Assembly: GCA_964586515.1 (NCBI GenBank)
Contig: CAZPGJ010000001.1
Location: 158,390 to 222,389, forward strand
From: an uncultured Dehalococcoidales bacterium
GTDB lineage: Bacteria; Chloroflexota; Dehalococcoidia; GIF9; AB-539-J10
Length of the DNA: 64,000 bases
Reading direction: 5' to 3'
Positions 3,751-42,173 of this stretch are shown here, piece after piece. The notes beneath the pieces are model-generated. The model was not told where the DNA came from and did no database searches. It saw nothing but the letters and a program-made list of their open reading frames with translations. The position numbers and the translations under genes were made by a program. How positions within the stretch are numbered: the first letter of the stretch is position 1; each line of letters opens with the position of its first letter.

Positions 3751-3757
3751 TAGGATT

Positions 3758-3781: not shown

Positions 3782-3852
3782 TAAATAAGATATAATAGAC
3801 GAGATAAGCGTGGTAAGAGCGAGAGGTTTTGTGGGGAACTGAGGTAAGTAAG

Positions 3853-4278
3853 ATGTTTTTCGGTGAGTATCCATATAAGGTTGATGAAAAGGGAAGAGTC
3901 CCTCTGCCGCCAAAATTCCGGCGAGAGATGAAGGACGGCGTGATATTAGTCAAGGGAATGGGAGAGAAATGCATCGCCGTTTACCCAATATCAGAATTGA
4001 AGAGATTGTCCGACAAGCTTGCTGAGAAGGCAGTAACTCCAGCTAACCTGAGGAAATTGAACCGCGCCATCTTCGGCTCCGCCTTCAGTGCCTCCTTTGA
4101 TGGGCAAGGCCGGATAAAATTGCCAGACCCCTTGCGTGACTACGCTAAGATTGCTGACACAGCGATTGTTGTCGGCGCCAATACCCGTGTTGAACTCTGG
4201 AGCGACGAGGGATGGAAGGCTGAGCAAACAGCGGCCGAGGAGCAGGCATCACAGATAATTGAGAGTTTTGGAGCATAG
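3853..4278 (+). CDS. mraZ: Transcriptional regulator MraZ
   Basis: ORF 3829..4278. Likely start is the ATG at 3853 (MFFGEYPYKVDEKGRVPLP...) preceded by GAGGTAAG. Duplicated MraZ/SpoVT-AbrB-type halves and position upstream of rsmH support the call. Confidence 0.85.
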   Translation: MFFGEYPYKVDEKGRVPLPPKFRREMKDGVILVKGMGEKCIAVYPISELKRLSDKLAEKAVTPANLRKLNRAIFGSAFSASFDGQGRIKLPDPLRDYAKIADTAIVVGANTRVELWSDEGWKAEQTAAEEQASQIIESFGA

Positions 4279-4281
4279 TGA

Positions 4282-17206: not shown

Positions 17207-17291
17207 GTCATTGCGAGCGACCTGCGCGCCTGCTCGCCGTACGACTTCGGCAGGCGAGCCAAGGCTTGGCAGGCGGGAGCGAAGCAATCTC
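17207..17291 (+). repeat. Full-length copy of the ~85-bp structured repeat, intergenic (12 nt after the pyrK stop)
   Basis: One mismatch (CCTGCGCGCC) relative to the consensus. Confidence 0.85.
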
Positions 17292-25595: not shown

Positions 25596-26907
25596 GGCAG
25601 CTTCGAGAAAGCTGGCGTTCCTTTCTACGGAAGTTAAGAATAAGGCTTTGGTCAATATCGCTGAGGCTCTTATCGCTAGAAAGGACGAAATCTTAGCTGC
25701 CAACAAGATTGATTACGAGGAGGCGAAGGCTTCAGGGATGAATGAAGCCATGCTGGACAGGCTTATGCTGTCGCCATCTCGCCTGGAAGGCATAGCCCAG
25801 GATACAAGAACAGTGGCGGCGCTGCCTGACCCGGTAGGCGAGGTGTTCGAGATGCGGACCTTGCCCAATGGTTTACAGATAAGCAAGAGGCGAGTCCCCC
25901 TGGGAGTCATTGGTGCGATATATGAGAGCCGCCCCAATGTCACCATAGACATATCGAGCCTGTGCCTTAAATCAGGCAACGCCGTCATCCTCCGTGGTGG
26001 CAAGGAAACCATAAATTCGAACAAGGCCTTAGCCAGGGTAGCTCAAGAAGCCTGTGACCAGGCCGGCGTGCCCCAGGGAGCCATCCAGCTTATCGAGTCC
26101 ACAGAACGGACTTTAGTCAATCACATGCTCAAGATGAAGGGAATAATTGACTTGATGATTCCCCGCGGCGGCGCTGGTTTGATAAAGCTTGTCTCGGAGA
26201 ATGCCGCTATGCCGGTAATTACCGGCGGCATCGGTGTCTGCCATACCTATGTGGACAAGAGTGCCGACGTGAACAAAGCGGTTGCCATCGCCTATAATGC
26301 CAAAGTCCAGCGCCCTACCGTGTGCAATGCTCTCGATTGCATTCTGGTCCATAATCAGATTGCTCAAGCTTACCTGCCGGCTATCGCCAAAGAGTGGGCC
26401 AAGGCCGGCGTGGAAATGCACTGCGACAAGCGAGCCTTGGCTATACTTAAGCAATGTCATTGCGAGCGACCTGCCCGCCTGCTCGCCGTACAACTTCGGC
26501 AGGCGAGCCAAGGCTTGGCAGGCGGGAGCGAAGCAACCTCCCCACCCTTAAAGCTAGTCCCGGCCACAGATGAGGACTGGGGGAAGGAATATCTATCCTT
26601 GAAAGCGGCTATTAAAGTGCTTGACTCTCTGGACGAAGCTCTGGAGCACATTGAGAAATATGGCTCGGGGCACTCCGAAGCTATCGTTACCGAAGACCAT
26701 TCGGCAGCAATGCGCTTCCTCAACGAAGTGGATGCCGCCTGTGTTTATGCCAATGCCAGCACTCGGTTCACCGACGGGGGGCAGTTTGGATTAGGCGCTG
26801 AGATAGGCATAAGCACGCAGAAATTTCACGCCCGCGGTCCCATGGCATTGAAAGAGCTAACCAGTTACAAGTGGATTATCGTGGGCAGCGGGCAAGTTCG
26901 GCCTTAG
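25549..26907 (+). CDS. proA: Gamma-glutamyl phosphate reductase with an in-frame ~85-bp repeat insertion
   Basis: Aldehyde-dehydrogenase-fold ProA motifs throughout. Residues CERPARLLAVQLRQASQGLAGGSEATS are encoded by the repeat at 26456-26540. Confidence 0.85.
   Translation: MKSAVKELEEKGKAAKAASRKLAFLSTEVKNKALVNIAEALIARKDEILAANKIDYEEAKASGMNEAMLDRLMLSPSRLEGIAQDTRTVAALPDPVGEVFEMRTLPNGLQISKRRVPLGVIGAIYESRPNVTIDISSLCLKSGNAVILRGGKETINSNKALARVAQEACDQAGVPQGAIQLIESTERTLVNHMLKMKGIIDLMIPRGGAGLIKLVSENAAMPVITGGIGVCHTYVDKSADVNKAVAIAYNAKVQRPTVCNALDCILVHNQIAQAYLPAIAKEWAKAGVEMHCDKRALAILKQCHCERPARLLAVQLRQASQGLAGGSEATSPPLKLVPATDEDWGKEYLSLKAAIKVLDSLDEALEHIEKYGSGHSEAIVTEDHSAAMRFLNEVDAACVYANASTRFTDGGQFGLGAEIGISTQKFHARGPMALKELTSYKWIIVGSGQVRP
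26456..26540 (+). repeat. Full-length copy of the ~85-bp structured repeat, in frame in proA (a different reading frame from the pyrC/pyrK copies)
   Basis: Two substitutions (GTACAACTTCGG, GCAACCTC) relative to the consensus. Confidence 0.85.
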
Positions 26908-28892: not shown

Positions 28893-29113
28893 ACCATCAC
28901 CTCTAGAGTAGAAAGACTCACCACCTCTGAGGTTGGAATAGTTTCATTACTGGCTAGCCTGTCCTCGACATGGAGCCTTATAGCATCCTTGATATTTTCC
29001 ATGACCTTTTCAAATGTTTCCCCTTGGGTGTAGCACCCCTGTAATTCAGGGCAATAGGCAAAATAACCATGTTCGTCTTTCTCTACCACCACAACGAAAT
29101 GATACTCAGCCAT
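28889..29113 (-). CDS. HicB-like antitoxin-domain protein (74 aa)
   Basis: HGYFAYCPELQGCYTQGETFEKVMENIKDAIRLHVE matches the HicB N-domain pattern. Confidence 0.6.
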   Translation of the reverse strand: MAEYHFVVVVEKDEHGYFAYCPELQGCYTQGETFEKVMENIKDAIRLHVEDRLASNETIPTSEVVSLSTLEVMV

Positions 29114-29204
29114 TTTCTCAGCCTCCTAATTTGAGTCTTAAGCCCTTGTTCAAAAGGGGCGATTGTCCACTCGTCTATTATAACACACGCTAGTTAGAAG
29201 TATT

Positions 29205-29245
29205 AACCGGACAGGGGAAAATCCGAACTTTTGTGGAGACGCAGG
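29205..29245. repeat. Conserved ~30-nt motif copy B (CAGGGGAAAATCCGAACTTTTGTGGA)
   Basis: Immediately 3' of the HicA-like ORF at 29251-29484 (minus strand). Confidence 0.6.
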
Positions 29246-29250
29246 ACAGC

Positions 29251-29484
29251 TTATAGTAGTTCGGAAAACCCTTCGGGACTTATTGTTGCTTGCCTTAAGA
29301 TGGAACGCAATGTCTTCAAGGCAAGCTCCCGCCGATGGTAAGGGATTGTTACCCTCTGCTTTGTTTCCGGATTCTTAAGAATATAATGGCTTCCTCGGAT
29401 ACGATGTATCTGGAAACCCGCCCGCAAAAGTGCCTCTACACAGTTTGCTTCCCGCTTATCCGTGGAAGCCTCACACTGGAACCT
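29251..29484 (-). pseudogene. HicA-family toxin-like reading frame lacking a canonical start codon (possible pseudogene or non-canonical/coupled initiation)
   Basis: Translation ...ANCVEALLRAGFQIHRIRGSHYILKNPETKQRVTIPYHRRELALKTLRSILRQATISPEGFSELL matches HicA. The frame opens just inside the hicB 3' end; the only in-frame canonical start is a TTG about 20 codons downstream. Confidence 0.45.
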
Positions 29485-29695
29485 CTATAACAGTTTCTTC
29501 GATAGCTTCTTCACTGGGAATTGGTTCGCCGTCTGCCTGCAAGCTTTCTATATAAAGTTCTATAGCTTCCCTGATGTTAGCTAAGGCTTCGTCCCTGGTA
29601 TCGCCCTCACTGATGCATCCAGGCAACAAAGGGGCTGTCACGGTATATCCACCCAGCTCATTAGGCTCAAGAATCACCCGAAACTTTCTTAACAT
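29471..29695 (-). CDS. HicB-like antitoxin-domain protein (74 aa)
   Basis: GGYTVTAPLLPGCISEGDTRDEALANIREAIELYIE matches the HicB N-domain pattern. Confidence 0.6.
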   Translation of the reverse strand: MLRKFRVILEPNELGGYTVTAPLLPGCISEGDTRDEALANIREAIELYIESLQADGEPIPSEEAIEETVIEVPV

Positions 29696-29865
29696 AATTC
29701 CTCACCCCGCTCCCTACGATATTCAAGGCAAAGCTCAAGCACTTCCTTGATATTAGCCAGACACTCCTCATATGTTTCACCCTGAGCCCTTGCTTCTGGA
29801 ATCAAAGGACAACTGGCTATATAGAATCCGTCAGGTGCTTTTCTTATGATAACACTATATTCCAC
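29689..29865 (-). CDS. HicB-like antitoxin-domain protein (58 aa, GTG start); its stop overlaps the start of the next gene (ATGTTAA)
   Basis: Translation VEYSVIIRKAPDGFYIASCPLIPEARAQGETYEECLANIKEVLELCLEYRRERGEELC. Below the 60-aa ORF-track threshold. Confidence 0.4.
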   Translation of the reverse strand: MEYSVIIRKAPDGFYIASCPLIPEARAQGETYEECLANIKEVLELCLEYRRERGEELC

Positions 29866-29911
29866 CCTTGTTTTCCCTAGCTCCGATTATAGCACAATGG
29901 CGGAGGGAGCA

Positions 29912-29950
29912 CCTGTCCAGGGTAGGGGAAAATCCGAACCTGTGTTGACT
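29912..29950. repeat. Conserved ~30-nt motif copy C (TAGGGGAAAATCCGAACCTGTGT), 3' of the 238-aa hypothetical gene
   Basis: Third copy of the motif; more diverged in its 3' half. Confidence 0.5.
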
Positions 29951-29971
29951 TGCAATTTATCGTCACCACTT

Positions 29972-30688
29972 CTATCCGAAAGAATTCGTGCTGCCACTAC
30001 TTGGCGCTTGGCCAAAATCCTGCCATAGGGTATTAACGATTGCAGCAGCGAGTTGAAGCTCTCTATTTTGCACAAGTTGAAACACTCCACGCTCGACATC
30101 CACGGCGAGGTATCCTTGGCTTGAATAATAGGCGAACGCAGCCCTACGACAGATGATACACCAATCTCCATACCGTTGTTCATTCTCCAACGTGCACGGA
30201 ATGTAAGTTTGATATTCCTTGATACGATGAAATGGCTCAACCTTAGAACCGGCCAGCTTCATGAGACTGCGATCCAGAACCACCCAGTTCGTGGGATCAA
30301 GAAACATACGAACTTTGGACAGAAAAGACAAATTAGAGAATTCAGGCATATTTAGATTTTTAAGCGCCTGCAATCCAATACCAGCCAATTGAATCAATAC
30401 TTGAGAAGCTTCCCGGAGACGACCTTCTGTGACGCCATTGCGAAAGTTTGTCACTCTTTTCCAATAATAGGGCCTACTGCGGTGTCCCCAATACAGGATA
30501 TTTGACAACCCATTCTTTACCACAACAGGGTCACCGGATCTCAAATCACCTCTGACAGTTGCCTCTAGCTCGCGCATTGAAGGATAAGAAACCTCCTTAT
30601 TCACCTTGAAGTCATACAACAGCTTTGGGTAAGAGTAACAGCGCATAGCTTTATCTAATTCTCTGATTTGGTCGTTGTTAAGAAACAC
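29972..30688 (-). CDS. Hypothetical protein (238 aa), no recognisable domain
   Basis: Long ORF with ordinary coding composition. Located between hisB and the HicB array and followed by motif copy C. Confidence 0.5.
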   Translation of the reverse strand: MFLNNDQIRELDKAMRCYSYPKLLYDFKVNKEVSYPSMRELEATVRGDLRSGDPVVVKNGLSNILYWGHRSRPYYWKRVTNFRNGVTEGRLREASQVLIQLAGIGLQALKNLNMPEFSNLSFLSKVRMFLDPTNWVVLDRSLMKLAGSKVEPFHRIKEYQTYIPCTLENEQRYGDWCIICRRAAFAYYSSQGYLAVDVERGVFQLVQNRELQLAAAIVNTLWQDFGQAPSSGSTNSFG

Positions 30689-30804
30689 TCTAGTATAAAT
30701 CCTTAACCCATAAGCTCAGGTGATTCTGTATATATCTAGTTCTGAGATGCCATAATCGCTTCCCAAGCATGATTTGAGATTAGTTTCATATTCAATATCT
30801 TTCC

Positions 30805-31395
30805 CTATCCCTCGATAACCTCTTTGGTGCTGGGAATCCTGCCCAGGATGCGCTCGTCAATGCGGGTGGCTGAGTCCAGGGCTCGGGCCAGGGCTTTGAA
30901 TAAGGCTTCGGCTTTGTGGTGGTCGTTGATGCCGCTGAGCACTTTGGCATGGAGGTTGATTTTGGCTTCGGAGGCAAAGGAGACCAGAAAATGGCGGACT
31001 AAATCAGCATCCAGGTCACCTATGCCGGCTTCGTTAAAGTCTACCTCAACTACGCTGTAGACCCTGCCCCCAATATCCACTGCTACCTCTGCCAGAGCTT
31101 CATCCATAGGCACAACAGCATGGGCCATACGAACGATGCCCTGCTTTTTCCCTAATGCCTGGTTAAAAGCCTTGCCCAGCGAGATAGCCACATCCTCGAC
31201 TACGTGGTGCTGGTCGGGACCAGAGGCTGAGATTTTTATGTCAAATACTCCATGCTGAGCTAGCTGGCTAAGGAGGTGGTCGAACATCCTTATGCCGGTG
31301 GTGATTTGAAATTGTCCGCTGCCGTCAATGTTGAGCTCTACCCTGACATTTGTTTCGGCAGTCTCACGAGCTACTTTTGCTTTTCTTTCAGCCAT
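30805..31395 (-). CDS. hisB: Imidazoleglycerol-phosphate dehydratase
   Basis: IGPD metal-binding motifs (DxHHxxE...) present: GPDQHHVVEDVAISLG, HLLSQLAQHG. Confidence 0.85.
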   Translation of the reverse strand: MAERKAKVARETAETNVRVELNIDGSGQFQITTGIRMFDHLLSQLAQHGVFDIKISASGPDQHHVVEDVAISLGKAFNQALGKKQGIVRMAHAVVPMDEALAEVAVDIGGRVYSVVEVDFNEAGIGDLDADLVRHFLVSFASEAKINLHAKVLSGINDHHKAEALFKALARALDSATRIDERILGRIPSTKEVIEG

Positions 31396-31428
31396 ATTTA
31401 ACCCCCAATATTTTATTTCACCCTCACC

Positions 31429-32583
31429 TTAATCCTCTCCCTTCAAGGGAGAGGGGAATGCTTGGGATTGCTTCCTCTTCGTTTTACTCAGAGTCGCAGT
31501 GACAGGTAGGGTTTTAAGTGCCTCAATTAAGACATCGGTATCCTCAGGTCTGCCCACGCTGATTCGCAGGCAGTCTTTCAATCTAGAAGTATCAAAATAG
31601 CGAACAAAGATGCCTTTCTTCCGCAGTTGTTGCCAGATTTCTTTGGCCTTTCCTTCGGGCAGAGAACAGAGAATAAAATTAGCCTGGGAGGGGTGAGGCT
31701 TTAGCCAATCCAGTTCCTTCAGTTTGCCAAATAACCGCTCCCGTTCCGTAACTATCCTGGTAACATTAGCACGAAGATACTCTATATCTGCCAGGGAAGC
31801 TAACACCGCAGCCTGGGCTGCGGCATTGGCATTATAGGGCTGCTTAATCTTCATCAGATAACCAGCAATTTTTGCGGGGAAGAAGCCGTAGCCTATCCTT
31901 AAGCCGGCTAGCCCGGCCCATTTGCTGAAGGTGCGTAAAACTATCAAGTTGGGATAACTGGGTACCAAGTTGGCCACGGTCACATTGCTGAATTCAAAAT
32001 AGGCTTCGTCCACGACAACAACCTTCCCCGTATCAACAAGCTCCATAATCTCTTTCTCAGAGGCGGTGTCGCCGGTAGGATTATTGGGCGAGGCGATAAA
32101 GATAGCCTTTGTTCTCCTAGTCAAGGCCTTCTTCATACCAACAATATCAATGGTAAAATCTTTGGTCCGGGGCACATCAACCACCCTGCCCCCACAGATA
32201 TCGGTGCTAAACGGATACATGCCGAACGTCGGTGGACAATTGATGACCTCGTCCCCCGGCTTGAGGAAAAGCCTGAGGATAAGGTCAATAAGCTCATCGC
32301 TGCCCATGCCACAAACAATGTGCTGGCGTCCCAGGCCGGTATATTCTTCTAAAGCCTTCCGCAGCTCCCTTTGCTCGGGGTCGGGGTAATTATGATAATA
32401 GGGATAAGTGGCCAGAGCTTGATAGACCTTGGGGGAACAGCCATAGGGATTCTCGTTGCCATCAAGCTTTATTACCTTATTCGCAGGCAATTCAGCTTGT
32501 TGGCTCAAAACTTCCGTAGGCTCGATAGGGATGTAACCCTTCATGGTCACGAGCTCAGGCCTGATAAGTTTTTTTATGTCCAT
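31429..32583 (-). CDS. hisC: Histidinol-phosphate aminotransferase (PLP fold type I)
   Basis: Class-II aminotransferase pattern; TFSKWAGLAGLRIGY has the PLP-lysine context. Confidence 0.8.
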   Translation of the reverse strand: MDIKKLIRPELVTMKGYIPIEPTEVLSQQAELPANKVIKLDGNENPYGCSPKVYQALATYPYYHNYPDPEQRELRKALEEYTGLGRQHIVCGMGSDELIDLILRLFLKPGDEVINCPPTFGMYPFSTDICGGRVVDVPRTKDFTIDIVGMKKALTRRTKAIFIASPNNPTGDTASEKEIMELVDTGKVVVVDEAYFEFSNVTVANLVPSYPNLIVLRTFSKWAGLAGLRIGYGFFPAKIAGYLMKIKQPYNANAAAQAAVLASLADIEYLRANVTRIVTERERLFGKLKELDWLKPHPSQANFILCSLPEGKAKEIWQQLRKKGIFVRYFDTSRLKDCLRISVGRPEDTDVLIEALKTLPVTATLSKTKRKQSQAFPSPLKGED

Positions 32584-32667
32584 TTCAACCTAAACTAAAA
32601 GTCAAAAATTAAAAATCAAAATGACAAATTAAAATGTAAATATTTTTGCCTTTTGCATTTTAATCTT
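32584..32667 (+). repeat. AT-rich intergenic repeat (aaagtcaaaaat / aaaatcaaaatgacaaa / ttgcatttt) between hisC and hisD, inside the his operon
   Basis: Shares motifs with the other AT-rich spacers (16214, 45087, 45636, 47752, 50380). Confidence 0.45.
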
Positions 32668-34068
32668 TTATTTAGCCCTCATCCTTCTTTCTACTGCCTG
32701 GGCGTGGGCATCGAGCCCTTCAGCTTCAGCTATTACCACAGCAGCCCGACTCAGCTTTCGCATGGCAGCCTTGTCCAGGGCGATGATATTGGTAACCTTG
32801 AGAAAGTCGGCAACGCCCAGAGGAGAACCGAAACGAGCACTGCCTCCGGTGGGCAAGACATGGCTGGGACCGGCAACATAATCACCGAGAACGACAGGCG
32901 AGTTCTCGCCTATGAAAATACAGCCGGCATTGTGAATTTTGGGGACTAAAGACGAAGCGTTAGATGTCATAAGAGAGAGGTGTTCCGGAGCGAAGAGGTT
33001 GACCAATTCCACTGCCTGGGCTATGTCATCTACAAGCACAAGCATCCCCCTATCAATAGCTGCTCTGGCAGTAGAACGCCGCTTTAATTTCCCCAGTTGC
33101 ATCTCGATTGCCTTATTTACCTGGTCAGCCAGGTCAGCCGAAGTGGTGATTAAAATTACTGAAGCCAGGGGGTCATGTTCAGCCTGGGCCAGGAGGTCAG
33201 CGGCACAAAGTGCGGGGTTGGCTTTCTCGTCGGCGACAATTACTACCTCGCTGGGGCCCTCGAGACCATCGAGGTCCACTGTGCCATAAACCATTTTCTT
33301 AACCAGGGTCACGAAGATGTTCCCGGGGCCACAAATCTTATCCACTCTAGGTATTGACTCAGTACCATAAGCTAATGCCGCAATAGCCTGAGCGCCGCCA
33401 ATTTTAAAAATGCGGTTGACCTTAGCAATATCGGCGGCGACCAACGTGGGTGCAGGAATCCACCCACCCTTAGCAGGCGGCGAAACCATAATGATTTCCT
33501 TAACACCGGCCACTTTGGCTGGTATGGCCATCATCAGCACTGTGGATGGATAGGCAGCGGTGCCGCCGGGCACATACAGGCCAACCTTTTGTAAGGGCCG
33601 AACCTGTTGCTTAAGGTGCTTGGCGATAGGAATCAGGCCGGTTTTGTGTCCACAGGCAACATGGAAGTCCCGGATTCTTCTGGCTGCGAACTCGAGGGCC
33701 GAGATAAGTTTCTTGTCTGTTATATCGTAAGCGGCCACAACTTCCTGTCTATTTACTTCCAGGGAATCCAACCGCGCTCCATCCAGTTTTTCGGTGTAAT
33801 CAAAGAGGGCTTTATCGCCTTTATCCCGAACTTCGCCGATAATACGGTCGACCACTTCTTGAACTGAAAGCTCTCCGCCAAAGACTTGCTTTATTTGAGC
33901 TCGTAGTCTCGGTGAGGTGTTGAAAGACTCCCAGAAGTTTTCCCTGGCCAGTAATTGTTTCGCTTTGTTAAATCCTTCGACTCTTTTCACAATAATCCTA
34001 CCCGTGGCGGGGATTGCTTCGTCACTTTGTTCCTCGCAATGACGAGGGGAAAAGGCTCGCAATGACAA
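32668..34068 (-). CDS. hisD: Histidinol dehydrogenase. The annotated N-terminal ~20 codons are encoded by GTCATTGCGAG-family repeat sequence, so the true start may be downstream.
   Basis: HisD motifs throughout (zinc/NAD-binding regions, e.g. AEHDPLASVILITTS and HLSLMT). The first 60 nt (ATGTCATTGCGAGCC...GTCATTGCGAGGAACAAAGTGACGAAGCAATCC) are repeat sequence. Confidence 0.8.
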   Translation of the reverse strand: MSLRAFSPRHCEEQSDEAIPATGRIIVKRVEGFNKAKQLLARENFWESFNTSPRLRAQIKQVFGGELSVQEVVDRIIGEVRDKGDKALFDYTEKLDGARLDSLEVNRQEVVAAYDITDKKLISALEFAARRIRDFHVACGHKTGLIPIAKHLKQQVRPLQKVGLYVPGGTAAYPSTVLMMAIPAKVAGVKEIIMVSPPAKGGWIPAPTLVAADIAKVNRIFKIGGAQAIAALAYGTESIPRVDKICGPGNIFVTLVKKMVYGTVDLDGLEGPSEVVIVADEKANPALCAADLLAQAEHDPLASVILITTSADLADQVNKAIEMQLGKLKRRSTARAAIDRGMLVLVDDIAQAVELVNLFAPEHLSLMTSNASSLVPKIHNAGCIFIGENSPVVLGDYVAGPSHVLPTGGSARFGSPLGVADFLKVTNIIALDKAAMRKLSRAAVVIAEAEGLDAHAQAVERRMRAK

Positions 34069-34070
34069 AA
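34012..34070 (-). repeat. Cluster of GTCATTGCGAG / GAAGCAATC motifs (two tandem terminal motifs) at the hisD 5' end
   Basis: Plus strand reads GATTGCTTCGTCACTTTGTTCCTCGCAATGACGAGGGGAAAAGGCTCGCAATGAC. Confidence 0.6.
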
Positions 34071-34081
34071 AAGAAGACTTG

Positions 34082-35557
34082 TCATGATAGCCCCGCTCGC
34101 AATTTCTGTGTCAGAAACTTCATTTTCTCTTTTTTATCGGAAGATGCCAGACTATTTTTGCTGGCAATCAGACATGCCGAAGATTGGAAGAGCACATCAA
34201 TAATCTTCAATTTGTGCTGTTTGAGAGTCTTCCCTGTCTGGACATTGTCAATAAGCATGTCGGCATCCTCTGGTAAAAAAGCCTCGCTCGCCCCCCAGGT
34301 TGGGATTAGCTTGTAGGGGTTAATGTGATTGTCCCGAAGATACCTGTCGGCAATATTTATGTACTCCGAAGCTACTTTTAGAGGAGCAAACTTGCCGCTC
34401 TGAACAAGCGACCGCAATTCATCAACGTCGGCCGCAGGCATTTCCTGGCTCACGGCAGCGACAATTTTGACGGTGCCAAAGCCGAGAGCAAACAATTTCT
34501 TCACCGGGCTCGAGGGGAAGCGATAGAGGTGTTCCCGCAGCCAATCCTCACCGGTTATGGCTAAGTCGAAATTGCTATTAGCCACTTGCAGAGGCATATC
34601 CTGGGGCCTGATTACTTTAATGCCCAGCCAGTCTAAATCAGCGGAGGGCCGGCGGCTCACTACTTCTTCAGAATAGCCCTGAAGTGCCAGCCCGGCTTGC
34701 TTCAAAAACTGCGCAGCAGGTGCTTGCTGGTGCCCATCAGGCAAAGCCAGGTTGATTTCTTTGGCTGGCCACGAGGAGCGAGGAATCTTTAGTTTCTTAC
34801 AGATATCAAGCTCATGTTCTATTGGTGTCTGTGGCCCCGCCTGCCAAGCCTCGGCTCGCCTGCCGAAGTCGTACGGCGAGCAGGCGGGCAGGTCAGCGCT
34901 AAGCTGGGAGTCAAAACACACCAATATCTGGCTCAAATCCTTGTTCTCCAGGCTTTCTCGATTGGCTATTACAAAGGCCGTAACGGGGAGTATCTTTTCG
35001 AGGGGAATTAAACCTTGAGCTGCTATATGCGCTCCGCTCTTTCCCCAGAGCACCGCCAAATCGGCATTTTCCGGGGGATAAGCCTCAGTAGCTCCCCACA
35101 CCGGGAAAATCCTGAACCTTTTCATCCTGAGATTTAAGGCAAAAGCCTCAGCCAGATTAGGATACTCACTCACTATACGATAGCTTCTGCGGGCTGATAA
35201 CTCATTGAGACTGGTTATCCCAGCTTGAGCACTGGCAACCACGTGTATACCACCTTCGCCGTAATTTAGACTCGCTATTTTTACCAGGGCCCCAGCGGGA
35301 TATTTCACCAGAAATTCTTCAATCCAATCCAATCCACAAATTCCCAGGTCATAATTCCCGACAGCCACCTGGATGGGAATATCTTTTTCCTGAAGTATTT
35401 TGGCGGAAAGACTGGGAAACCTTGCCGAGCGCAGGCGATATTGCTTTGTTTTATCGCCATAACCATCAAATCCCACGTCTATCTGGGCAAGCAAGCTAGC
35501 TGTCGGCGATAGAAACCTGCCTTTAGGGAGAGCGAGTTTAATAGATTGATATTTCAT
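34082..35557 (-). CDS. hisG: ATP phosphoribosyltransferase, tandemly duplicated HisG-like protein (two HisG-type halves, 491 aa) with an in-frame repeat insertion between the halves
   Basis: The first half (LALPKGRFL...VAVGNYDLGICGLDW) and second half (INLALPDGHQQ...VANSNFDLAITGEDW) both match HisG. Residues ADLPACSPYDFGRRAEAWQAG come from the inverted repeat copy at ~34843-34904. Confidence 0.7.
   Translation of the reverse strand: MKYQSIKLALPKGRFLSPTASLLAQIDVGFDGYGDKTKQYRLRSARFPSLSAKILQEKDIPIQVAVGNYDLGICGLDWIEEFLVKYPAGALVKIASLNYGEGGIHVVASAQAGITSLNELSARRSYRIVSEYPNLAEAFALNLRMKRFRIFPVWGATEAYPPENADLAVLWGKSGAHIAAQGLIPLEKILPVTAFVIANRESLENKDLSQILVCFDSQLSADLPACSPYDFGRRAEAWQAGPQTPIEHELDICKKLKIPRSSWPAKEINLALPDGHQQAPAAQFLKQAGLALQGYSEEVVSRRPSADLDWLGIKVIRPQDMPLQVANSNFDLAITGEDWLREHLYRFPSSPVKKLFALGFGTVKIVAAVSQEMPAADVDELRSLVQSGKFAPLKVASEYINIADRYLRDNHINPYKLIPTWGASEAFLPEDADMLIDNVQTGKTLKQHKLKIIDVLFQSSACLIASKNSLASSDKKEKMKFLTQKLRAGLS
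34843..34904 (-). repeat. Core of the ~85-bp structured repeat in inverted orientation (termini degenerated), in frame in hisG
   Basis: Plus strand reads CCCGCCTGCCAAGCCTCGGCTCGCCTGCCGAAGTCGTACGGCGAGCAGGCGGGCAGGTC, the reverse complement of the repeat core. Confidence 0.75.
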
Positions 35558-35734
35558 AACGTCATTCTAAACATTATCAGCACCGAGTCACAACAGTGTG
35601 CCGATTACGGATGTCTTTGAAGCATTTTATCATCTACACCATCCATTGTATTACTTGCCATGTTGCCCAACATTTTGTATGTTTGTGAGGTGCTAAACGG
35701 ACTTGAGGTATCCAAGTGAACCGCAAACACCGTA

Positions 35735-36418
35735 TTATGTGCTGTACCCCTTGTTTTTCTCAATATCCACATTACTTATAGCAACATTAGGAAAGCAAAC
35801 TGCCATCATTCCCATCAGTACAATCAGGTAGCAATAAGACTGAAAGCAAATAAAGTCACATAGCTCAGGATCATTAATGATTTTTCCCACAGAGTAGCCC
35901 AATCTCGTATCATCAAGTTGAACTATGTTCCATTGTGAACCAACAGGGTCACCATGCACAATGTGACCAAAGGTTTCGCATATCTGCTTCGCTGTTGTGA
36001 TGTCGGCATTGTCGCTCATTGTTTCGAGCATTTTTGTGAGGCTTGGTCTCTCCCGCAATTGCCAACCATTTTGCCAAACTTCAACTTCATCAGGATAGGT
36101 GTTGAGATATGAAATGATGGCAGCACGTTCGATCAGCGGTCGCATAAGCACTAAGGCTCCAAAAAGGTAACCCTGCCGAATGAGTTCCCGGATTGTCAAA
36201 GCAAGGTTGATTCCCTGAGGGATGATCTGGCAAGCTGCTTTTTGAAGGTCCGATAACTCAGCTTGGTGGGTGTAAGCGGCAATATCTGCATTTGCCTCCA
36301 AGCAAGATATGATAACCTGATCGAATTGAAAAACCGACTCTCTGCCTAGATAAGGCTCATTTGATGGCAAATACACCGCTTCATGATTATTTTTTTTGTT
36401 TTCTAGGGGACTATTCAC
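35735..36418 (-). CDS. Hypothetical protein (227 aa), lower-GC gene between hisG and the hisZ-like gene
   Basis: Long ORF; no recognisable family. Confidence 0.4.
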   Translation of the reverse strand: MNSPLENKKNNHEAVYLPSNEPYLGRESVFQFDQVIISCLEANADIAAYTHQAELSDLQKAACQIIPQGINLALTIRELIRQGYLFGALVLMRPLIERAAIISYLNTYPDEVEVWQNGWQLRERPSLTKMLETMSDNADITTAKQICETFGHIVHGDPVGSQWNIVQLDDTRLGYSVGKIINDPELCDFICFQSYCYLIVLMGMMAVCFPNVAISNVDIEKNKGYST

Positions 36419-36488
36419 AAATTTACCTCGTTGCCGACATTTTGTCTAACTTGTGTGTAACTGCACTGCGGTTATGCACAACACTCTT

Positions 36489-37727
36489 TCATTTCGCGCC
36501 TATTATGTCAATAATATCTGCTGGGGAGGTTACGTTTCGCTGTCGTCCTTGCTTACAGTCCTTGAGCCTGAACGGCTTCTTGGCGGAAACCGAGACAACC
36601 CAGCGATAGGTACTCTCTTCCTGACCACCTAAGCCAAGCTCCGTGGCATATCCGGCGTCACGAAGCGATTCCGCCACAGCAAAGCACTTCTTTACTATTT
36701 CGGGAGTCGATTCCTTACCTTTAACTAAAATTCCACGTTCGCCCTTTTTCTCTTTCTCCAGCGGCAGCAATTTCATTATAGGGTCCACATATAGGGCAAA
36801 TCCGCAGGCAGGGACGTCCTTGCCATTCATAAGGGGCACAAGCTTATCATATCTTCCTCCGCCACCTATCTTTTCCCCAGCAGCCAGGAACTGAAAACAG
36901 ATTCCAGTATAATACTCAAAACCATGTATGGCCGCGATATCGATTTCATAGCTGCAACCCAGGTTATCCAGTAATGTGGTAATGCTGAGGAGGTCCTCCA
37001 GGCTGGACTTGAAGTCCTGCGACGCTTTGGGGAATGAAGCTCTGACATTGTGTAGAAAGCTGCTCGATTTCCCCTTGAGGCCCAATAACGCAGCCATGAG
37101 CCTGTCGATTTCGGGGCTAGTGGATTTCGCCCTGGTCAATGCTTGCCAATTTCCTTCTAAAATGCGGTTCGTCATCTTAGCTTCCTCAGCGGGGCTGAGC
37201 TTAAACTCCTTGAGCAGCGCCTTCACCAAGCCAGCATGGGACACTTGCAGCCCGACATTGCTGATGCCAAGGCTGCGGATAACCTCTTCAGCCAGCAGAA
37301 CTATCTCCACATCCGGGGCAGATTGGGCACCACCGAAAAACTCAGCACCACATTGCCAGCGCTCCCTGTTCTCTTTTCCCGTTCCCTCGAAAGCAAAGAT
37401 ATTAGTCACATAGAAAAGCCTGGCTAATTCTTGTCCGCTCAGATTGTCGATGTAGAGCCTGGCCACAGGAATAGTACCATCTGGCCTCAAGACGACTCGC
37501 TCACCGCTCCAGCCATCCCAATCGAGAAAGGAATATACCTTGCTTAACATGCTCGGCGTGAGTGTTCCCGTAGCTGTAAACAAATAGAGGTATTCTAAAG
37601 TTGGCGTCCTCACCTCCTGGTAGCCCCAGTTACGACAACAAGTCCGGAAGGTATCTTCAATACGACGAAAGCGCAACATGTCCTCGGGGAGCAAGTCCTG
37701 CATTCCCTTACACTTTTGGTTTTTCAT
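36489..37727 (-). CDS. hisZ: Histidyl-tRNA-synthetase-like protein with degenerate class-II motif 2; probable ATP-PRT regulatory subunit HisZ (or a HisS paralog)
   Basis: HisRS-like N-terminus (MQDLLPEDMLRF...GYQEVRTPTLE) and motif-3-like GGGRYDKLV. Motif 2 lacks the conserved FRYE/arginine (FAFEGTGKENRERWQ). Located next to the his operon. Confidence 0.5.
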   Translation of the reverse strand: MKNQKCKGMQDLLPEDMLRFRRIEDTFRTCCRNWGYQEVRTPTLEYLYLFTATGTLTPSMLSKVYSFLDWDGWSGERVVLRPDGTIPVARLYIDNLSGQELARLFYVTNIFAFEGTGKENRERWQCGAEFFGGAQSAPDVEIVLLAEEVIRSLGISNVGLQVSHAGLVKALLKEFKLSPAEEAKMTNRILEGNWQALTRAKSTSPEIDRLMAALLGLKGKSSSFLHNVRASFPKASQDFKSSLEDLLSITTLLDNLGCSYEIDIAAIHGFEYYTGICFQFLAAGEKIGGGGRYDKLVPLMNGKDVPACGFALYVDPIMKLLPLEKEKKGERGILVKGKESTPEIVKKCFAVAESLRDAGYATELGLGGQEESTYRWVVSVSAKKPFRLKDCKQGRQRNVTSPADIIDIIGAK

Positions 37728-37837
37728 CCTTAGCCTATTCTACACTAAGCTGTGTCCAGCTTCAATAATGATGAACCTGAGAGTTTTTTTGTTGCTTTTA
37801 GTCGCTTAGTTTATAATTAACTTGAGGATAATGCGAG

Positions 37838-39154
37838 ATGCTGAGAACCGGGCTTAAGGTTTTCTTCCTTGCCTGCCTTGTGATGCCAATAGTTGCGGGT
37901 TTAGGAGGCAGCCTGATTGCTGCCGCCAACCCTACTACTGTAGAAGTTCTTACCGTGGATGGCACCATTGTGCCCGTGATAGCTGATTATATTGATCGGG
38001 GTATCAGCCAGGCGGAGAAGGATGGCGCTACTGTCTGCATAATTGAGCTAAATACCCCCGGTGGGCTTCTTGACTCAACCGAGAAGATAGTCCAGAGGAT
38101 TATGAATGCCGACGTGCCCATCGTGGTTTACGTCTCACCCAAAGGCGCCTGGGCTGCCTCAGCGGGAACCTTCATTACTCTATCTGCTAATATAGCGGCG
38201 ATGACGCCGGGCACGACTATCGGCGCTGCCCATCCCGTAACTACTGGAGGAGCGAATATATCAGAAGACGAAATGAAAAAAATAGTCGAGTTCTCGGCTA
38301 AGTGGATGAGGACTATAGCTGAGGAGCGTGGCCGCAATATGGAAGAAGCCGAGCTAGCAGTTACGGAAAGCAAAGCATTTACCGATGTTGATGCCTTGGA
38401 ATGTAACCTTATCAACCTGCGAGCTGACAGTTTGGAAAGCCTTATTTCCCAAATCAATGGCTGGAACGTTACTTTAGCCAGTGGCAAGGAAGTCACCATT
38501 GATACTACGAACTATGGTTTAACTAGAAACGGAATGAATGACATTGAGAAATTTCTGCAAACCATCAGCGACCCCAACATTGCCTACATCCTCTTTACCC
38601 TGGCTACCATAGGGTTGATTGTTGAGATTTCCAGCCCGGGGCTGGTTTTTCCAGGGGTGGCTGGTGGCATCAGCTTATTCCTGGCGTTTTACTCCCTGGG
38701 TGTGCTTAATGCTTACTGGGGAGGCATAGCACTTATTTTACTTGCCGTGGGACTTTTTATCGCCGAGTACTTCACCCATAGTTTTGGGCTATTGACTGCC
38801 GGGGGGGCAGCCTCGTTGGTCATGGGCTCGTTGCTATTATTCAGCCACAGCCCGGGCATAGCGGTAGATAAGAGGCTAATTGCCGGGGTTACAGTAGGCT
38901 TTACCGCTTTCGCTGTCTTTGTCATCGGCGCCATTATCCGCGGGCAAAGGCGCCGCAAGGCTACCGGGGCTGAGGGGATGATTGGGACAATAGCCATCGC
39001 CAAAACACCCCTCGACCCTACGGGCACAGTTCTGGCCCAGGGAGAATTATGGACGGCGTCATCGGAAAGCGGCAGAATAGCACCGGGTGAAGAGGTGATA
39101 ATATCCAGAGTGGAAGGATTGAAATTATGGGTGGCAAAGAAATTAAAAGAATAG
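37838..39154 (+). CDS. NfeD-family membrane-bound serine protease (ClpP-like domain + TM segments + C-terminal OB-fold), the stomatin-operon partner protein
   Basis: ClpP-class region (IIELNTPGGLLDSTEKIV...AASAGTFI), multiple TM helices, and an NfeD-type C-terminal OB domain. Confidence 0.75.
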   Translation: MLRTGLKVFFLACLVMPIVAGLGGSLIAAANPTTVEVLTVDGTIVPVIADYIDRGISQAEKDGATVCIIELNTPGGLLDSTEKIVQRIMNADVPIVVYVSPKGAWAASAGTFITLSANIAAMTPGTTIGAAHPVTTGGANISEDEMKKIVEFSAKWMRTIAEERGRNMEEAELAVTESKAFTDVDALECNLINLRADSLESLISQINGWNVTLASGKEVTIDTTNYGLTRNGMNDIEKFLQTISDPNIAYILFTLATIGLIVEISSPGLVFPGVAGGISLFLAFYSLGVLNAYWGGIALILLAVGLFIAEYFTHSFGLLTAGGAASLVMGSLLLFSHSPGIAVDKRLIAGVTVGFTAFAVFVIGAIIRGQRRRKATGAEGMIGTIAIAKTPLDPTGTVLAQGELWTASSESGRIAPGEEVIISRVEGLKLWVAKKLKE

Positions 39155-39166
39155 GAAGCTAGTACC

Positions 39167-39472
39167 GTGGAAATACCAGGTCCAATTATCATAGCCATAG
39201 TTTTTGCCGTCGCTTTTATCATTTTCGTTATTTACGCCATCGTAAAAGGCCAGATGCGAAAACTCTCCGCTGGTGTAGAGGAAATGATAGGAAAGGAAGC
39301 TGTAGTGCAAACGACCCTCAACCCTAAGGGCACGGTTCTGGCTGAAGGAGAGCTATGGACAGCTATAGCCGAAGGTAGTAAAATAGAACCCGGAGAGGAG
39401 GTGATAATAACCAAAGTAGAAGGATTGAAATTGTGGGTGACCAAAAAATCTAAAGAAAAGGAGAAGGAATGA
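39167..39472 (+). CDS. Short NfeD-like protein (TM helix + OB-fold), a paralog of the C-terminus of the upstream gene
   Basis: GKEAVVQTTLNPKGTVLAEGELWTAIAEGSKIEPGEEVIITKVEGLKLWV parallels residues 370-430 of the preceding protein. Confidence 0.7.
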   Translation: MEIPGPIIIAIVFAVAFIIFVIYAIVKGQMRKLSAGVEEMIGKEAVVQTTLNPKGTVLAEGELWTAIAEGSKIEPGEEVIITKVEGLKLWVTKKSKEKEKE

Positions 39473-40236
39473 ACGTATTTATTTATGTTATTATCGCAAT
39501 AGTAGTAATAATACTTCTGTCAGCAGCTATCAAGATCGTTCGAGAGTATGAAAGAGGGGGTGTTTTCCGCCTGGGCAGGTGGGTTGGCCTCAGGGGGCCA
39601 GGTCTGGTCTTCATTATACCTTTCGTTGAGATTATGCGGAAACTTGACCTTCGGGTAATCACCATGGATGTTCCCCAGCAAGAGTGCATCACCGTGGACA
39701 ATGTTACTGTCAGGGTTGATGCCGTAATTTACTTTCGGGTGGTCGAGGCCTCAGATGCTATTCTCAAGGTACTCGATTATATCAAGGCAACTTCGCTGCT
39801 TGCCCAGACCACTTTGCGAAATGTTGTCGGACAATCTACGCTGGATGAGTTGTTAGGCCAGCGGGACAGGCTCAACGAAAAGATACAGACGGTGGTTGAT
39901 GAAGGCACTAATCCCTGGGGTATAAAGGTGAGCATGGTGGAGGTTAAGGATGTGCAACTGCCGCAAACAATGCAGCGGGCTATGGCAGCCCAAGCTGAGG
40001 CTGAGCGAGAGAGGAGAGCCAAGGTGGTTCATGCCGAGGGTGAAGCCCAGGCGGCAGAGAAATTGGCCGCGGCTGCCAAAATTATTTCCAGTCAGCCTTC
40101 AGCTCTACAGCTTCGCTATTTGCAGACATTGACTGCCATTGTTACAGAAAAGACTAATACCATACTGTTCCCCATACCCATAGATATAATAACTCCTCTT
40201 TTGGGCAAGGCTAGTGGGTCAGAGAAAAGTAAATAA
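39469..40236 (+). CDS. SPFH/band-7 (stomatin/prohibitin-like) protein
   Basis: SPFH domain pattern (IKIVREYERGGVFRLGRW...DVPQQECITVDNVTVRVDAVIYFRV) and a coiled-coil AEAERERRAK region. Confidence 0.85.
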   Translation: MNVFIYVIIAIVVIILLSAAIKIVREYERGGVFRLGRWVGLRGPGLVFIIPFVEIMRKLDLRVITMDVPQQECITVDNVTVRVDAVIYFRVVEASDAILKVLDYIKATSLLAQTTLRNVVGQSTLDELLGQRDRLNEKIQTVVDEGTNPWGIKVSMVEVKDVQLPQTMQRAMAAQAEAERERRAKVVHAEGEAQAAEKLAAAAKIISSQPSALQLRYLQTLTAIVTEKTNTILFPIPIDIITPLLGKASGSEKSK

Positions 40237-40283
40237 TGTGACATAACCCGTGCCAATAGCACTTAGCGAGGGCGCTTAGTAAT

Positions 40284-40455
40284 GTCATTCTGGGAGTCCA
40301 AATGAAGTTGGACGAAGAATCTCTGGACATTGTCGTGAGCTATGCGAAGGGCTCAGAATGACACATCATTCTGTCATTGCGAGGCATGAGACGGTGCCGA
40401 AGCAATCTCAGTGGGGCAGAGGATTGCCACGCACCTTTCAGGTGCTCGCAATGAC
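40284..40455 (+). repeat. Compound cluster of TIR-bounded short elements (GTCATTCTGGG...CTCAGAATGAC; GTCATTGCGAG...GAAGCAATCTCA...CTCGCAATGAC) in the SPFH-mcm spacer
   Basis: Several nested inverted terminal motifs of the GTCATT[GC/CT]GAG family read directly. Confidence 0.6.
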
Positions 40456-40517
40456 AAAAGTGATACCTGGATCCGAGAGACTCCATCGGGCAAATTTTCT
40501 TAACTCAGGGGGTAGCT

Positions 40518-42173
40518 ATGGCCAATAAAACTAAGCAGGAATGGCATGAAACTACACTGACTCCGGCTTTAAAGCGTGCCGCCGAGCGCCAGGAGAAGTT
40601 TGAAACCAGCTCCGGCGTGGAGATTGACGCTGTTTACACACCGGAGGACTTGGTAAATTTTGACTACGCTCGAGATTTAGGCTACCCCGGAGAGTATCCC
40701 TTCACTCGGGGTGTCCAGGCAAATATGTATCGGGGTAGAATATGGACAATACGCCAGTACGCTGGCTTTGGTACTGCTGAGGAAACTAACCAGAGGTACC
40801 GCTATCTCCTAGAGCAAGGGCAGACGGGCCTGAGCATAGCCTTCGACCTGCCCACACAAATTGGCTATGACTCTGACCATCCCTTAGCTAGAGGCGAGGT
40901 GGGCAAGGTCGGTGTTGCCATAGACAGCCTCCGGGATATGGAGATTCTTTTCCAGGATATACCTCTGGATAAGGTAAGCACCTCCATGACCATAAATGCC
41001 ACTGCCCCGATTCTTCTTGCCATGTATATTGCCCTGGGCAAGAAACAAGGAGTTGAGCTCGCTGAATTAAACGGCACTACTCAAAATGACATACTCAAGG
41101 AGTACATTGCCCGCGGCACTCACATCTTCCCACCCCGTCCTTCCATGCAGTTGACCACTGATATATTTGCCTATTGCGCCAAGCAAGTCCCTCGCTGGAA
41201 TACCATCAGCATCAGTGGTTACCATATACGAGAAGCTGGTTCCACCGCGGCCCAAGAAATTGGCTTCACCCTGGCTAACGGTATTGCTTATGTTCAGGCA
41301 GCTATTGATGCTGGACTTGATGTAGATACATTTGCTCCCAGGCTATCATTCTTCTTCAATAGCCATGTCAACTTTTTTGAAGAGATTGCCAAATTCAGGG
41401 CGGCACGCCGCCTCTGGGCGAAGATTATGAGAGAGAGGTTTGGGGCTAAAAATTCACGTTCCTGGATGCTTCGCTTCCACACTCAAACTGCCGGATGCAG
41501 TCTCACTGCGCCACAGCCACATAATAATATTATGCGGACAGCCATAGAAGCCCTGGCTGCAACCTTAGGAGGTACTCAATCACTGCACACTAACTCTTTT
41601 GACGAAGCTTATGCTCCGCCTTCTGAAGAAGCAGTAACCATAGCTGTGCGGACTCAGCAAATACTAGCTTATGAAAATGGCATTGCCGATGTTGTTGATC
41701 CCCTTGGTGGCTCTTATTATATAGAACATCTAACCGACAGCCTGGAAAAGGAAGCTGGGGAGTATATCACCAAAATTGATAACCTTGGTGGTGCCGTAGC
41801 TGCCATAGAGCAAGGATATCAACAGAGGGAAATTCAGGACTCCTCTTACCACTACCAGAAAGAAATTGAAAGCGAAAAACGTACCGTGGTAGGGGTAAAC
41901 AAATTCGTCTCTCCCTACCCTAAAATAGTGGGGCTGCTGCGAGTCAAGCCGGAAGTGGAAAAAAGACAGAGGGAGAGGACTGCCCAGGTTAGGAAAGACA
42001 GAAACAACGACAAAGTCAAGCAGGCGCTTAAGCGATTGGAAGATGTCGCCCGCAGCAAGGATAATACCATGCCCGCCTTTCTTGAATGTGTGGAGGCCTA
42101 CGCCACCGTGGGTGAGATATGTAATGTACTGCGCGGGATTTTTTCTACCCAAAAGGAATTCCTGGTTTTTTAG
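40518..42173 (+). CDS. Methylmalonyl-CoA mutase, large catalytic (N-terminal, TIM-barrel) subunit
   Basis: 551 aa with MCM substrate-binding barrel motifs. No B12-binding domain; that is encoded separately at 42860. Confidence 0.85.

Follow-up and report, generated by a model that had tools for sequence, protein, structure and literature searches.

What kind of ATP phosphoribosyltransferase (ATP-PRT) is encoded by a histidine operon in which the hisG gene specifies two HisG-type halves in one chain, close to a gene for a protein related to histidyl-tRNA synthetase (HisRS)? ATP-PRT catalyzes the first step of histidine synthesis and serves both as a model system for allostery and as an antibiotic target. 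The operon in question lies on the minus strand (30.8-37.7 kb) of a 64,000-nucleotide stretch of DNA from an uncultured Dehalococcoidales bacterium (GenBank assembly GCA_964586515.1, contig CAZPGJ010000001.1, positions 158,390 to 222,389), the whole of which is referred to below as the window, and it comprises a hisZ-like gene, an open reading frame (ORF) of 227 amino acids (aa), the double hisG, here designated hisG(N-C), and hisD, hisC and hisB (Table 1). We propose that the 491-aa product of hisG(N-C) is probably a form of the dimeric ATP-PRT core in which an enzyme half and a pseudoenzyme half are covalently linked; it would possess a single active site per chain and be controlled by a divergent HisZ.

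The short form of ATP-PRT is composed of four HisZ and four HisGS subunits, with both activation and inhibition by histidine exerted via HisZ, and, to our knowledge, all ATP-PRTs that have been investigated use a homodimer of HisG, arranged head to tail, as their catalytic unit. Two forms of the enzyme, long and short, have been described (PMC8305728, PMC10795190), and the distribution of these forms has not been analyzed in depth (PMC8305728). The HisG dimer is their common catalytic core, its two active sites lying in a crevice formed by the head-to-tail subunits, and in the short forms two HisG dimers flank a HisZ tetramer (PMC10795190); for the dimeric core as the common unit of ATP-PRT, the same paper cites Mittelstadt et al. 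2018.

The product of hisG(N-C) was confirmed to contain two HisG catalytic-core domains and to be devoid of the regulatory domain of the long-form enzymes. Both the Pfam model PF01634 (HisG; 215.3 bits against a cutoff of 25.5, E 5.5e-64) and TIGR00070 (hisG; 241.6 bits against a cutoff of 75.75) matched the protein in two stretches; PF01634 was the sole Pfam family detected at E <= 0.01, and the regulatory domain HisG_C (PF08029) was not found in the 491-aa protein. The strings from which the initial annotation of this locus had deduced two HisG-type halves (LALPKGRFL and NYDLGICGLDW in the first, LALPDGHQQ and NFDLAITGEDW in the second) are all present, and the pairwise alignment of the halves that it had recommended gave 29% identity over 226 residues (E 7e-35), which is far beyond chance. 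Solved HisG catalytic cores align to each half, covering residues 267-487 in the case of the second, and the best sequence matches of this second, C-type half were long-form cores (C. jejuni, Medicago and M. thermautotrophicus). An ordinary long-form HisG, in which the second half would be the regulatory domain, was rejected on account of the missing HisG_C and of the second half being a full catalytic core. Long-form HisGL homohexamers (E. coli 1H3D, M. tuberculosis 1NH7 and C. jejuni 4YB5) share the catalytic core with HisG(N-C) and carry a histidine-binding HisG_C (ACT-like) domain, whereas the extra ~215 residues here form an N-terminal catalytic-type domain instead of a C-terminal regulatory one.

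An AlphaFold model of the 491-aa chain, obtained with an input alignment of 14 fused proteins, reached a predicted local distance difference test (pLDDT) value of 82 and a predicted template modeling score (pTM) of 0.77, with disorder confined to the linker between the halves (residues 220-264, pLDDT < 50). The pTM suggests that the predicted halves are held in a defined arrangement. When this model was compared to the PDB using Foldseek, HisG chains were retrieved exclusively (E down to 1.8e-19), with template modeling scores (TM-scores) of up to 0.88 if normalized to the target and of up to 0.41 if normalized to the query; owing to this low query-normalized score, each match can be seen to span one half, and no solved chain has the two-domain build.

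The two halves differ in the catalytic residues that they retain, as is evident from column counts in 155 distinct N-type and 145 distinct C-type sequences, numbered according to P. arcticus HisGS (identical in sequence to PDB 5M8H chain E). In the loop that binds the 5-phosphate of phosphoribosyl pyrophosphate (PRPP), for which we tested the pattern [DE]-x-x-x-[ST]-G-x-T-[LMF], the C-type half passes and the N-type half fails. The position of T180 is occupied by T in all 145 C-type sequences, but by S (68), N (30) or D (28) in the N-type; that of G181 is G in all 145 C-type sequences, but E (52), G (45) or V (12) in the N-type; and that of T183 is T in 144 C-type sequences, but E (50), D (40) or H (13) in the N-type. 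The acidic D176 is represented by D (79) or E (66) in the C-type and by L, I or V in the N-type, and R73, kept in all 145 C-type sequences, by Q or H in the N-type. At the canonical PKGR motif the loss is on the other side: the N-type retains K30 in 154 and R32 in 134 sequences, whereas the C-type has D (145/145) and H (145/145) at these positions, i.e., an invariant PDGH, in fused and split forms alike. In more distant fused forms and in split lineages, the N-type reads PAGQ, PTGD, PKGE or PKGD at this position. The loop around R56 and K57 takes the form [RK]-x-Y-R in the N-type and x-x-R-R-P in the C-type, with an alignment that is uncertain by two positions, so that an arginine is kept in the N-type under both alignments and in the C-type under one. 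The G-A-x-E motif with the E163 equivalent is present in both halves, this residue being found in 139 of the 155 N-type sequences.

These patterns indicate, at the level of sequence, that the halves represent two paralog classes of old origin, each conserved in its own right, which have lost catalytic motifs in a complementary fashion. In a neighbor-joining tree that included P. arcticus HisGS, all N halves fell into one clade and all C halves into another, with similar inner branching of the two clades and the C-type placed closer to canonical HisG than the N-type; likewise, the C half gives higher scores with canonical HisG proteins than the N half does, and it has more invariant columns. 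Both halves are under purifying selection and the linker is not, the ratios of nonsynonymous to synonymous substitution rates (dN/dS) in pairwise comparisons with 16 relatives being 0.09-0.21 (N half), 0.05-0.18 (C half) and 0.2-1.07 (linker); given this range, the N half is not decaying. A recent tandem duplication was rejected in view of the 29% identity between the halves, their separate old clades and the existence of the same two types as separate genes. The initial annotation had spoken of a duplicated short form, which was correct as to two HisG cores; it did not, however, capture that these belong to old paralog classes with complementary motif loss that are encoded by separate genes in other lineages. 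A stand-alone 221-aa HisG (P0350), in which the PRPP loop is intact and PLGH stands in place of PKGR, occupies a basal branch in the C-type clade; it may represent an intermediate, or else the catalytic partner in a further split system.

The fused gene is widespread. A protein identical to HisG(N-C) is recorded for an NCBI contig of 596 kb. Close relatives of HisG(N-C), 473-498 aa in length and 82-91% identical, fall into more than 120 protein clusters, the named ones of which stem from Dehalococcoidia metagenome-assembled genomes; in a HMMER pass over cluster representatives, about 14 clusters with both domains in full length were retrieved, with identities as low as 34%, and a scan with one genome per species returned at least 544 relatives. 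The best 80 of these at least 544 relatives were taken as species-representative loci and, together with 80 metagenome contigs, make up the 160 related loci considered here. The full two-domain gene, or its remainder at a contig end, is present in 80 of the 80 species representatives, all of which are metagenome-assembled genomes titled Dehalococcoidia, Dehalococcoidales or Chloroflexota. As far as the contigs reach, the order hisZ-like, hisG(N-C), hisD is maintained in each of these 80 loci, and in one of the related loci (L001), whose HisG is 85% identical to that of the window, the stop codon of hisZ-like and the start codon of hisG overlap by 4 nucleotides (nt), in line with a genetic coupling of the two genes. 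One locus labeled 'Dehalococcoides mccartyi' (L055; isolate BE2012_46_32, a metagenome-assembled genome) encodes a double HisG that has relatives in uncultured Dehalococcoidia only, and a search seeded with this protein returned metagenome-derived proteins only; the label looks wrong.

A metagenome scan seeded with stand-alone N-type proteins recovered mostly fused genes among the 80 contigs, and three loci in which the N-type (226-228 aa) and the C-type (238-244 aa) are separate genes with overlapping ends (L083, L084 and L085). In L083 and L084, a hisZ-like gene precedes the split pair, while L085 is only 1.1 kb long and begins at the N-type gene. Since the split loci keep the N- and C-type genes together, the N:C pair behaves as a unit, whether fused or not. 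The L083 locus (metagenome contig Ga0256839_1000413, positions 305-4425, from a bacterial lineage) carries hisS, hisZ-like, hisG-N and hisG-C in a row; its hisS, directly upstream of hisZ-like, scores 337 bits with TIGR00442, above the cutoff, and its product contains an HGTP_anticodon domain. The HisZ-like family can therefore coexist with a real HisRS. The L083 HisRS is of the PRK12420 type.

The 412-aa protein encoded at the head of the operon is matched by Pfam tRNA-synt_His (E 1.2e-58), and, as the initial annotation had pointed out, it combines a degenerate motif 2 (FAFEGTGKENRERWQ) with a conserved motif 3 (GGGGRYD, aa 288-294). It shares the class II core, the histidine pocket and motif 3 (GGRYD) with HisRS, but differs from it by lacking the motif-2 arginine, by a motif-2 loop with 3 residues fewer than that of the true L083 HisRS, by a histidine in place of R259 and by the absence of a detectable HGTP_anticodon domain, for which there was no Pfam match at E <= 1 in the ~90 residues following the core. 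Alignments with E. coli HisRS, and of 125 orthologs with the L083 HisRS, show that none of the 125 orthologs has the motif-2 arginine (A in 81, I in 14, V in 12, T in 11 and S in 6; A112 in the window), and that the HisRS-specific arginine (E. coli R259) is variable (R in 57 and H in 43; H268 in the window). The histidine pocket (T85, Q125, E129, Y272 and Y273) and G290-G291-R292-Y293 are, by contrast, invariant or nearly so among the 125 sequences. These features support, from sequence, the view of the earlier annotation that the protein is a HisZ-like, non-aminoacylating HisRS paralog, and it resembles HisZ by all sequence and context criteria checked. Assignment to the classical HisZ group is tentative, because the protein scores 212.4 bits with TIGR00443 hisZ (cutoff 271.65), and far below all cutoffs of the PRK1229x models (including PRK12292), and in PDB comparisons is as near to HisRS as to HisZ; with TIGR00442 hisS it scores 215.7 bits (cutoff 286.75) and thus stays below that cutoff as well. 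For the HisZ-like protein, the predicted structure had a pLDDT of 51, which is too low for its fold to be assessed. A HisZ-like protein 84% identical to that of the window (P0219) is labeled 'Candidatus Bathyarchaeota archaeon', a taxonomic label that looks wrong.

The mechanism that we favor builds on what is known of P. arcticus HisGS, in which R56 crosses the dimer interface to the pyrophosphate of PRPP bound in the other subunit, the R32A variant is 25-fold impaired alone and about 3.6-fold in the presence of HisZ, and at least one of R32 and R56 is required (PMC9734150). In HisG(N-C), the catalytic unit would be a single polypeptide, made up of the N-type HisG paralog, a disordered linker of ~50 residues and the C-type HisG paralog, and would represent a single-chain, asymmetric version of the head-to-tail HisG dimer. 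As only the C-type half keeps the PRPP 5-phosphate loop, we infer that this half binds PRPP and carries the sole working active site of the chain. The leaving-group arginine that would act in cis is missing from this half, PKGR having been replaced by the invariant PDGH, and the histidine at the R32 position might be tolerated if the arginine loop of the partner, together with the HisZ-like regulator, supplied electrostatic help. The N-type half would not bind PRPP in the normal manner, but it keeps the arginine loop that crosses the interface in the homodimer; it may thus be an obligatory pseudoenzyme partner that completes and shapes the C-type site and perhaps offers a docking surface for the regulator. 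By homology and gene coupling, the HisZ-like protein most likely activates the enzyme and passes on the feedback inhibition by histidine.

Several points weigh against this interpretation: (i) for all members of the family the support consists of sequence comparison and predicted fold, and both a packing like that of the HisGS homodimer and an N-type arginine reaching the C-type site are deduced rather than observed; (ii) the R56 loop can be aligned in two ways, offset by two positions, and in one of them R-R of the C-type half falls on R56/K57 as well, so that either side could supply the trans-arginine; (iii) the N-type retains residues of the active-site region (the E163 equivalent in 139/155 sequences, and WGAAEAYPPE) and could still bind a ligand; (iv) full activity of the C-type half is assumed, since histidine replaces a canonical, catalytically important arginine; (v) the HisZ-like protein lies below the NCBIfam HisZ cutoff and is equally near to HisRS and HisZ; and (vi) a second, canonical hisG, or a hisS, could be present elsewhere in the genome, the 64-kb window being part of a 596-kb contig.

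The main rival explanation regards the N-type half as a ligand-sensing regulatory module, whose old cleft binds AMP/ADP, phosphoribosyl-ATP, pyrophosphate or histidine and thereby tunes the C-type site, with or without the HisZ-like protein. We consider this unlikely. The N-type has strongly conserved motifs of its own around the former active site (EKDIPIQVAVGNYDLGICG, SEYPNLAE and WGAAEAYPPE), the E163 equivalent is widely kept, dN/dS is as low as 0.09-0.21, and K30 and R32 are retained in most Dehalococcoidia in spite of there being no normal binding of PRPP, all of which would suit an effector site; R32, however, is not conserved in the distant fused or split lineages (PAGQ, PTGD, PKGE and PKGD), which means that retention of the pocket is uneven; the neighboring gene invariably encodes a dedicated regulator that binds histidine (HisZ-like), and the proposal draws on sequence conservation. 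It is quite improbable that both halves are active, as a covalent dimer with two ATP-PRT sites in which the N-type would bind PRPP via a remodeled loop. The fact that both halves pass the HisG family models and are under purifying selection speaks for it, as does the S-G that is still found in the loop of the window's own N half (LWGKSGAHI), but conservation breaks down in the 155 N-type sequences at the three PRPP-loop positions where the C-type and canonical HisG show no variation, the D176 position is hydrophobic, R73 is Q or H, and a catalytic loop would not drift in this way while the rest of the N-type domain is conserved.

Somewhat more improbable still is a new function of the double protein, such as another phosphoribosyl transfer or a purely regulatory complex, with a canonical hisG elsewhere in the genome. 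Here, the invariant PDGH in place of PKGR, which is unusual in a HisG active site, and the fact that the visible sequence amounts to 64 kb of the genome have to be set against the position of the double HisG gene, which always heads hisD-hisC-hisB, the wide margin by which the TIGR00070 equivalog cutoff is passed, and the lack of any other HisG in the window or in the 160 related loci. Within the 64-kb window, a search for a second HisG or HisRS paralog, including a true hisS, gave no hit, the extra matches being copies of the linker repeat only. The probability that errors in assembly or gene calling created the two-domain ORF, for instance by a sequencing error that merged two adjacent genes, is practically negligible: split two-gene versions do exist in other lineages, but the frame is unbroken in more than 120 protein clusters, in 80 of the 80 species representatives and in most of the 80 metagenome contigs, and the linkers are in frame despite their differing lengths. 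An artefactual fusion was accordingly discarded, the ORF recurring in independent assemblies. The covalently linked enzyme/pseudoenzyme core thus remains the reading that we prefer.

Beyond the window, we regard the odds as about even that the N:C pair defines a third class of ATP-PRT, with an obligate heteromeric core of two ancient HisG paralogs, neither of which possesses the full catalytic set; such a pair would form one composite active site, would be regulated by a deep-branching HisRS paralog, and would be fused in many Dehalococcoidia and split elsewhere. The closest known system is the hetero-octamer of short-form HisGS and HisZ (L. lactis, T. maritima, P. arcticus and A. baumannii; 1Z7M, 1USY, 5M8H and 8OY0), with which the system described here has in common (i) a HisG core without the C-terminal regulatory domain, (ii) an adjoining gene for a HisRS paralog that lacks the residues for aminoacylation, co-transcribed or translationally coupled, and (iii) a catalytic unit expected to consist of two paired HisG folds, the TM-score with HisGS chains reaching 0.88. 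The differences are that the short form uses two copies of one protein of 200-230 aa, whereas here there are two different paralogs, 29% identical, encoded by a fused gene or by adjacent genes; that only one HisG fold keeps the PRPP loop, and does so with PDGH for PKGR; and that the HisZ-like protein, unlike the short-form HisZ, falls below the NCBIfam HisZ cutoff and has ~90 extra C-terminal residues. Since one fold keeps the PRPP loop, the stoichiometry would be expected to differ from that of the short form, with half as many active sites per HisG fold. In calling the arrangement non-standard, the initial annotation was right.

Pairs in which one copy loses its catalytic motifs and stays conserved as an obligatory partner are exemplified by AdoMetDC (S-adenosylmethionine decarboxylase) with its prozyme and by the deoxyhypusine synthase pair of trypanosomatids. 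These belong to other folds and pathways, and differ from the present case in that the copies here are usually fused and are joined by a third, unrelated regulatory paralog (HisZ-like). In the literature searched on HisG architecture, Dehalococcoides HisG and HisGS/HisGL phylogeny, we found no description of a tandem, duplicated, fused or heteromeric HisG, and two papers of the Fani group on elongation and fusion of his genes do not mention a double HisG. What is familiar is the chemistry and the HisZ-type partnership; what appears to be new, judged from the sequences, is that the N:C core is asymmetric, each half having lost motifs that the other keeps; in architectural terms, it is a variant of a system already known.

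Table 1. Coordinates of the histidine operon and of the features discussed (nucleotide positions in the window)
Feature	Position	Strand	Remarks
hisZ-like, 412 aa	36489..37727	(-)	HisRS paralog; presumed regulatory subunit of ATP-PRT
Degenerate motif 2 (FAFEGTGKENRERWQ), aa 111-125	37353..37397	(-)	In the HisZ-like protein
227-aa ORF	35735-36418	(-)	Sole ORF between hisZ-like and hisG(N-C)
Private insertion, ~1 kb, with the 227-aa ORF	35543..36537	(-)	Between hisZ-like and hisG(N-C); 69 bp there in relatives
hisG(N-C), 491 aa	34082..35557	(-)	ATP phosphoribosyltransferase with two HisG catalytic-core domains
N-type half, aa 1-215	34913..35557	(-)	HisG fold, PRPP loop degenerate; presumed pseudoenzyme partner
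PKGR motif, N-type half	35516..35527	(-)	K30/R32 in P. arcticus HisGS numbering
LWGKSGAHI, N-type half, aa 170-178	35024..35050	(-)	Degenerate remnant of the PRPP 5-phosphate loop; aligned to D-V-V-D-T-G-N-T-L of P. arcticus HisGS
Interdomain linker, aa 216-264	34766..34912	(-)	~50 residues; pLDDT < 50 (residues 220-264), dN/dS 0.2-1.07, variable length
In-frame copy of the 60-nt palindromic dispersed repeat	34835..34894	(-)	Encodes DLPACSPYDFGRRAEAWQAG; 20 residues of the linker
C-type half, aa 265-491	34082..34765	(-)	HisG fold, PRPP loop intact; presumed catalytic half
PDGH motif, C-type half	34730..34741	(-)	Replaces canonical PKGR
DNVQTGKTL, C-type half, aa 437-445	34223..34249	(-)	Intact PRPP 5-phosphate binding loop
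hisD (histidinol dehydrogenase)	32668..34068	(-)	Pfam Histidinol_dh, E 2.4e-156
hisC (aminotransferase)	31429..32583	(-)	Listed ORF; equivalent position in L001 is Aminotran_1_2
hisB (imidazoleglycerol-phosphate dehydratase)	30805..31395	(-)	Listed ORF; equivalent position in L001 is IGPD
238-aa ORF directly downstream of hisB	29972-30688	(-)	Position held by a mechanosensitive-channel gene in L001

The linker had been described as repeat-derived, and 20 of its ~50 residues are indeed encoded by an in-frame 60-nt repeat. This repeat is a GC-rich nested palindrome resembling a repetitive extragenic palindrome (REP) or a miniature inverted-repeat transposable element (MITE), with a predicted hairpin of -42.4 kcal/mol (z -3.1), and it occurs in five copies in the 64 kb, where none would be expected by chance; the further copies are on the plus strand at 9976-10035, 16509-16568, 17219-17278 and 26468-26527. 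Among relatives more than 80% identical, the linker has the repeat absent (52 aa), short (+9 aa), full (+19 aa) or with a different inner part, and it is also absent from relatives of 476 aa. The linker thus tolerates insertions, and sequence comparison identifies the repeat as a recent, polymorphic addition and not as the origin of the linker. At the copies starting at 9976, 16509 and 26468, stop-free ORFs run through the repeat, reading ...DLPACSPYDFGRRAKAWQAG....

A second dispersed repeat is located in the spacer between hisG and hisD (34001-34052, minus strand; GTCATTGCGAGGAACAAAGTGACGAAGCAATC..., reading ...RHCEEQSDEAI...), and a further copy lies near 11224-11250 on the plus strand. The listed hisD ORF (466 aa, with a TTG start) starts inside this second repeat, with which its first ~26 codons overlap; because HisD of the relatives is 440 aa long, the real start is probably situated further downstream, ~26 codons 3' of the listed TTG.

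The arrangement at the other end of hisG(N-C) is peculiar to this genome. The HisZ-like gene had been placed two genes away from hisG, and the one ORF that intervenes, that of 227 aa, lies on an insertion private to this genome. Homology to two related loci (L003 and L021) ends at 36538/36574 and picks up again at 35542, and the insertion supplies new sequence for the C-terminal ~16 aa of HisZ-like and for the N-terminal 5 aa of HisG(N-C), so that the hisZ/hisG overlap is broken in the window. The inserted ORF has no counterpart in any of the 160 related loci, its sole family match is a weak one to DUF5677 (22.6 bits, below the cutoff), and PADLOC found no match for it.

With regard to the remaining neighborhood, the 238-aa ORF downstream of hisB has neither a Pfam nor a PADLOC match. 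On the other side of the operon, the plus strand from 37838 to 42173 encodes two NfeD proteins, a Band_7/stomatin protein and a methylmalonyl-CoA mutase, and the same arrangement is found beside the his operon in L001 (78-4572), where a glycosyltransferase gene and a 90-aa ORF are the only genes outside the his operon that have no counterpart in the window. An Rfam scan of positions 29000-39000 gave no match at E <= 0.1, and hence no known leader or riboswitch was detected in this region.

To conclude, the double HisG is widespread and well supported by the sequence evidence, and it is of immediate relevance to ongoing studies of the ATP-PRT mechanism. A natural single-chain, asymmetric core would make it possible to test the share that each HisG subunit has in the active site of its partner, namely the trans-arginine and the electrostatic preorganization (PMC9734150). 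It would also illustrate clearly how an enzyme of core biosynthesis can be duplicated, lose motifs in a complementary way and become fused. In databases, the double HisG is annotated as 'ATP phosphoribosyltransferase' and the HisZ-like partner often as 'histidyl-tRNA synthetase' (Joint Genome Institute, JGI), a label under which the partner could be miscounted as the HisRS of the cell. The double HisG may, in turn, serve as a marker of histidine prototrophy when metabolism is reconstructed from Dehalococcoidia genomes.

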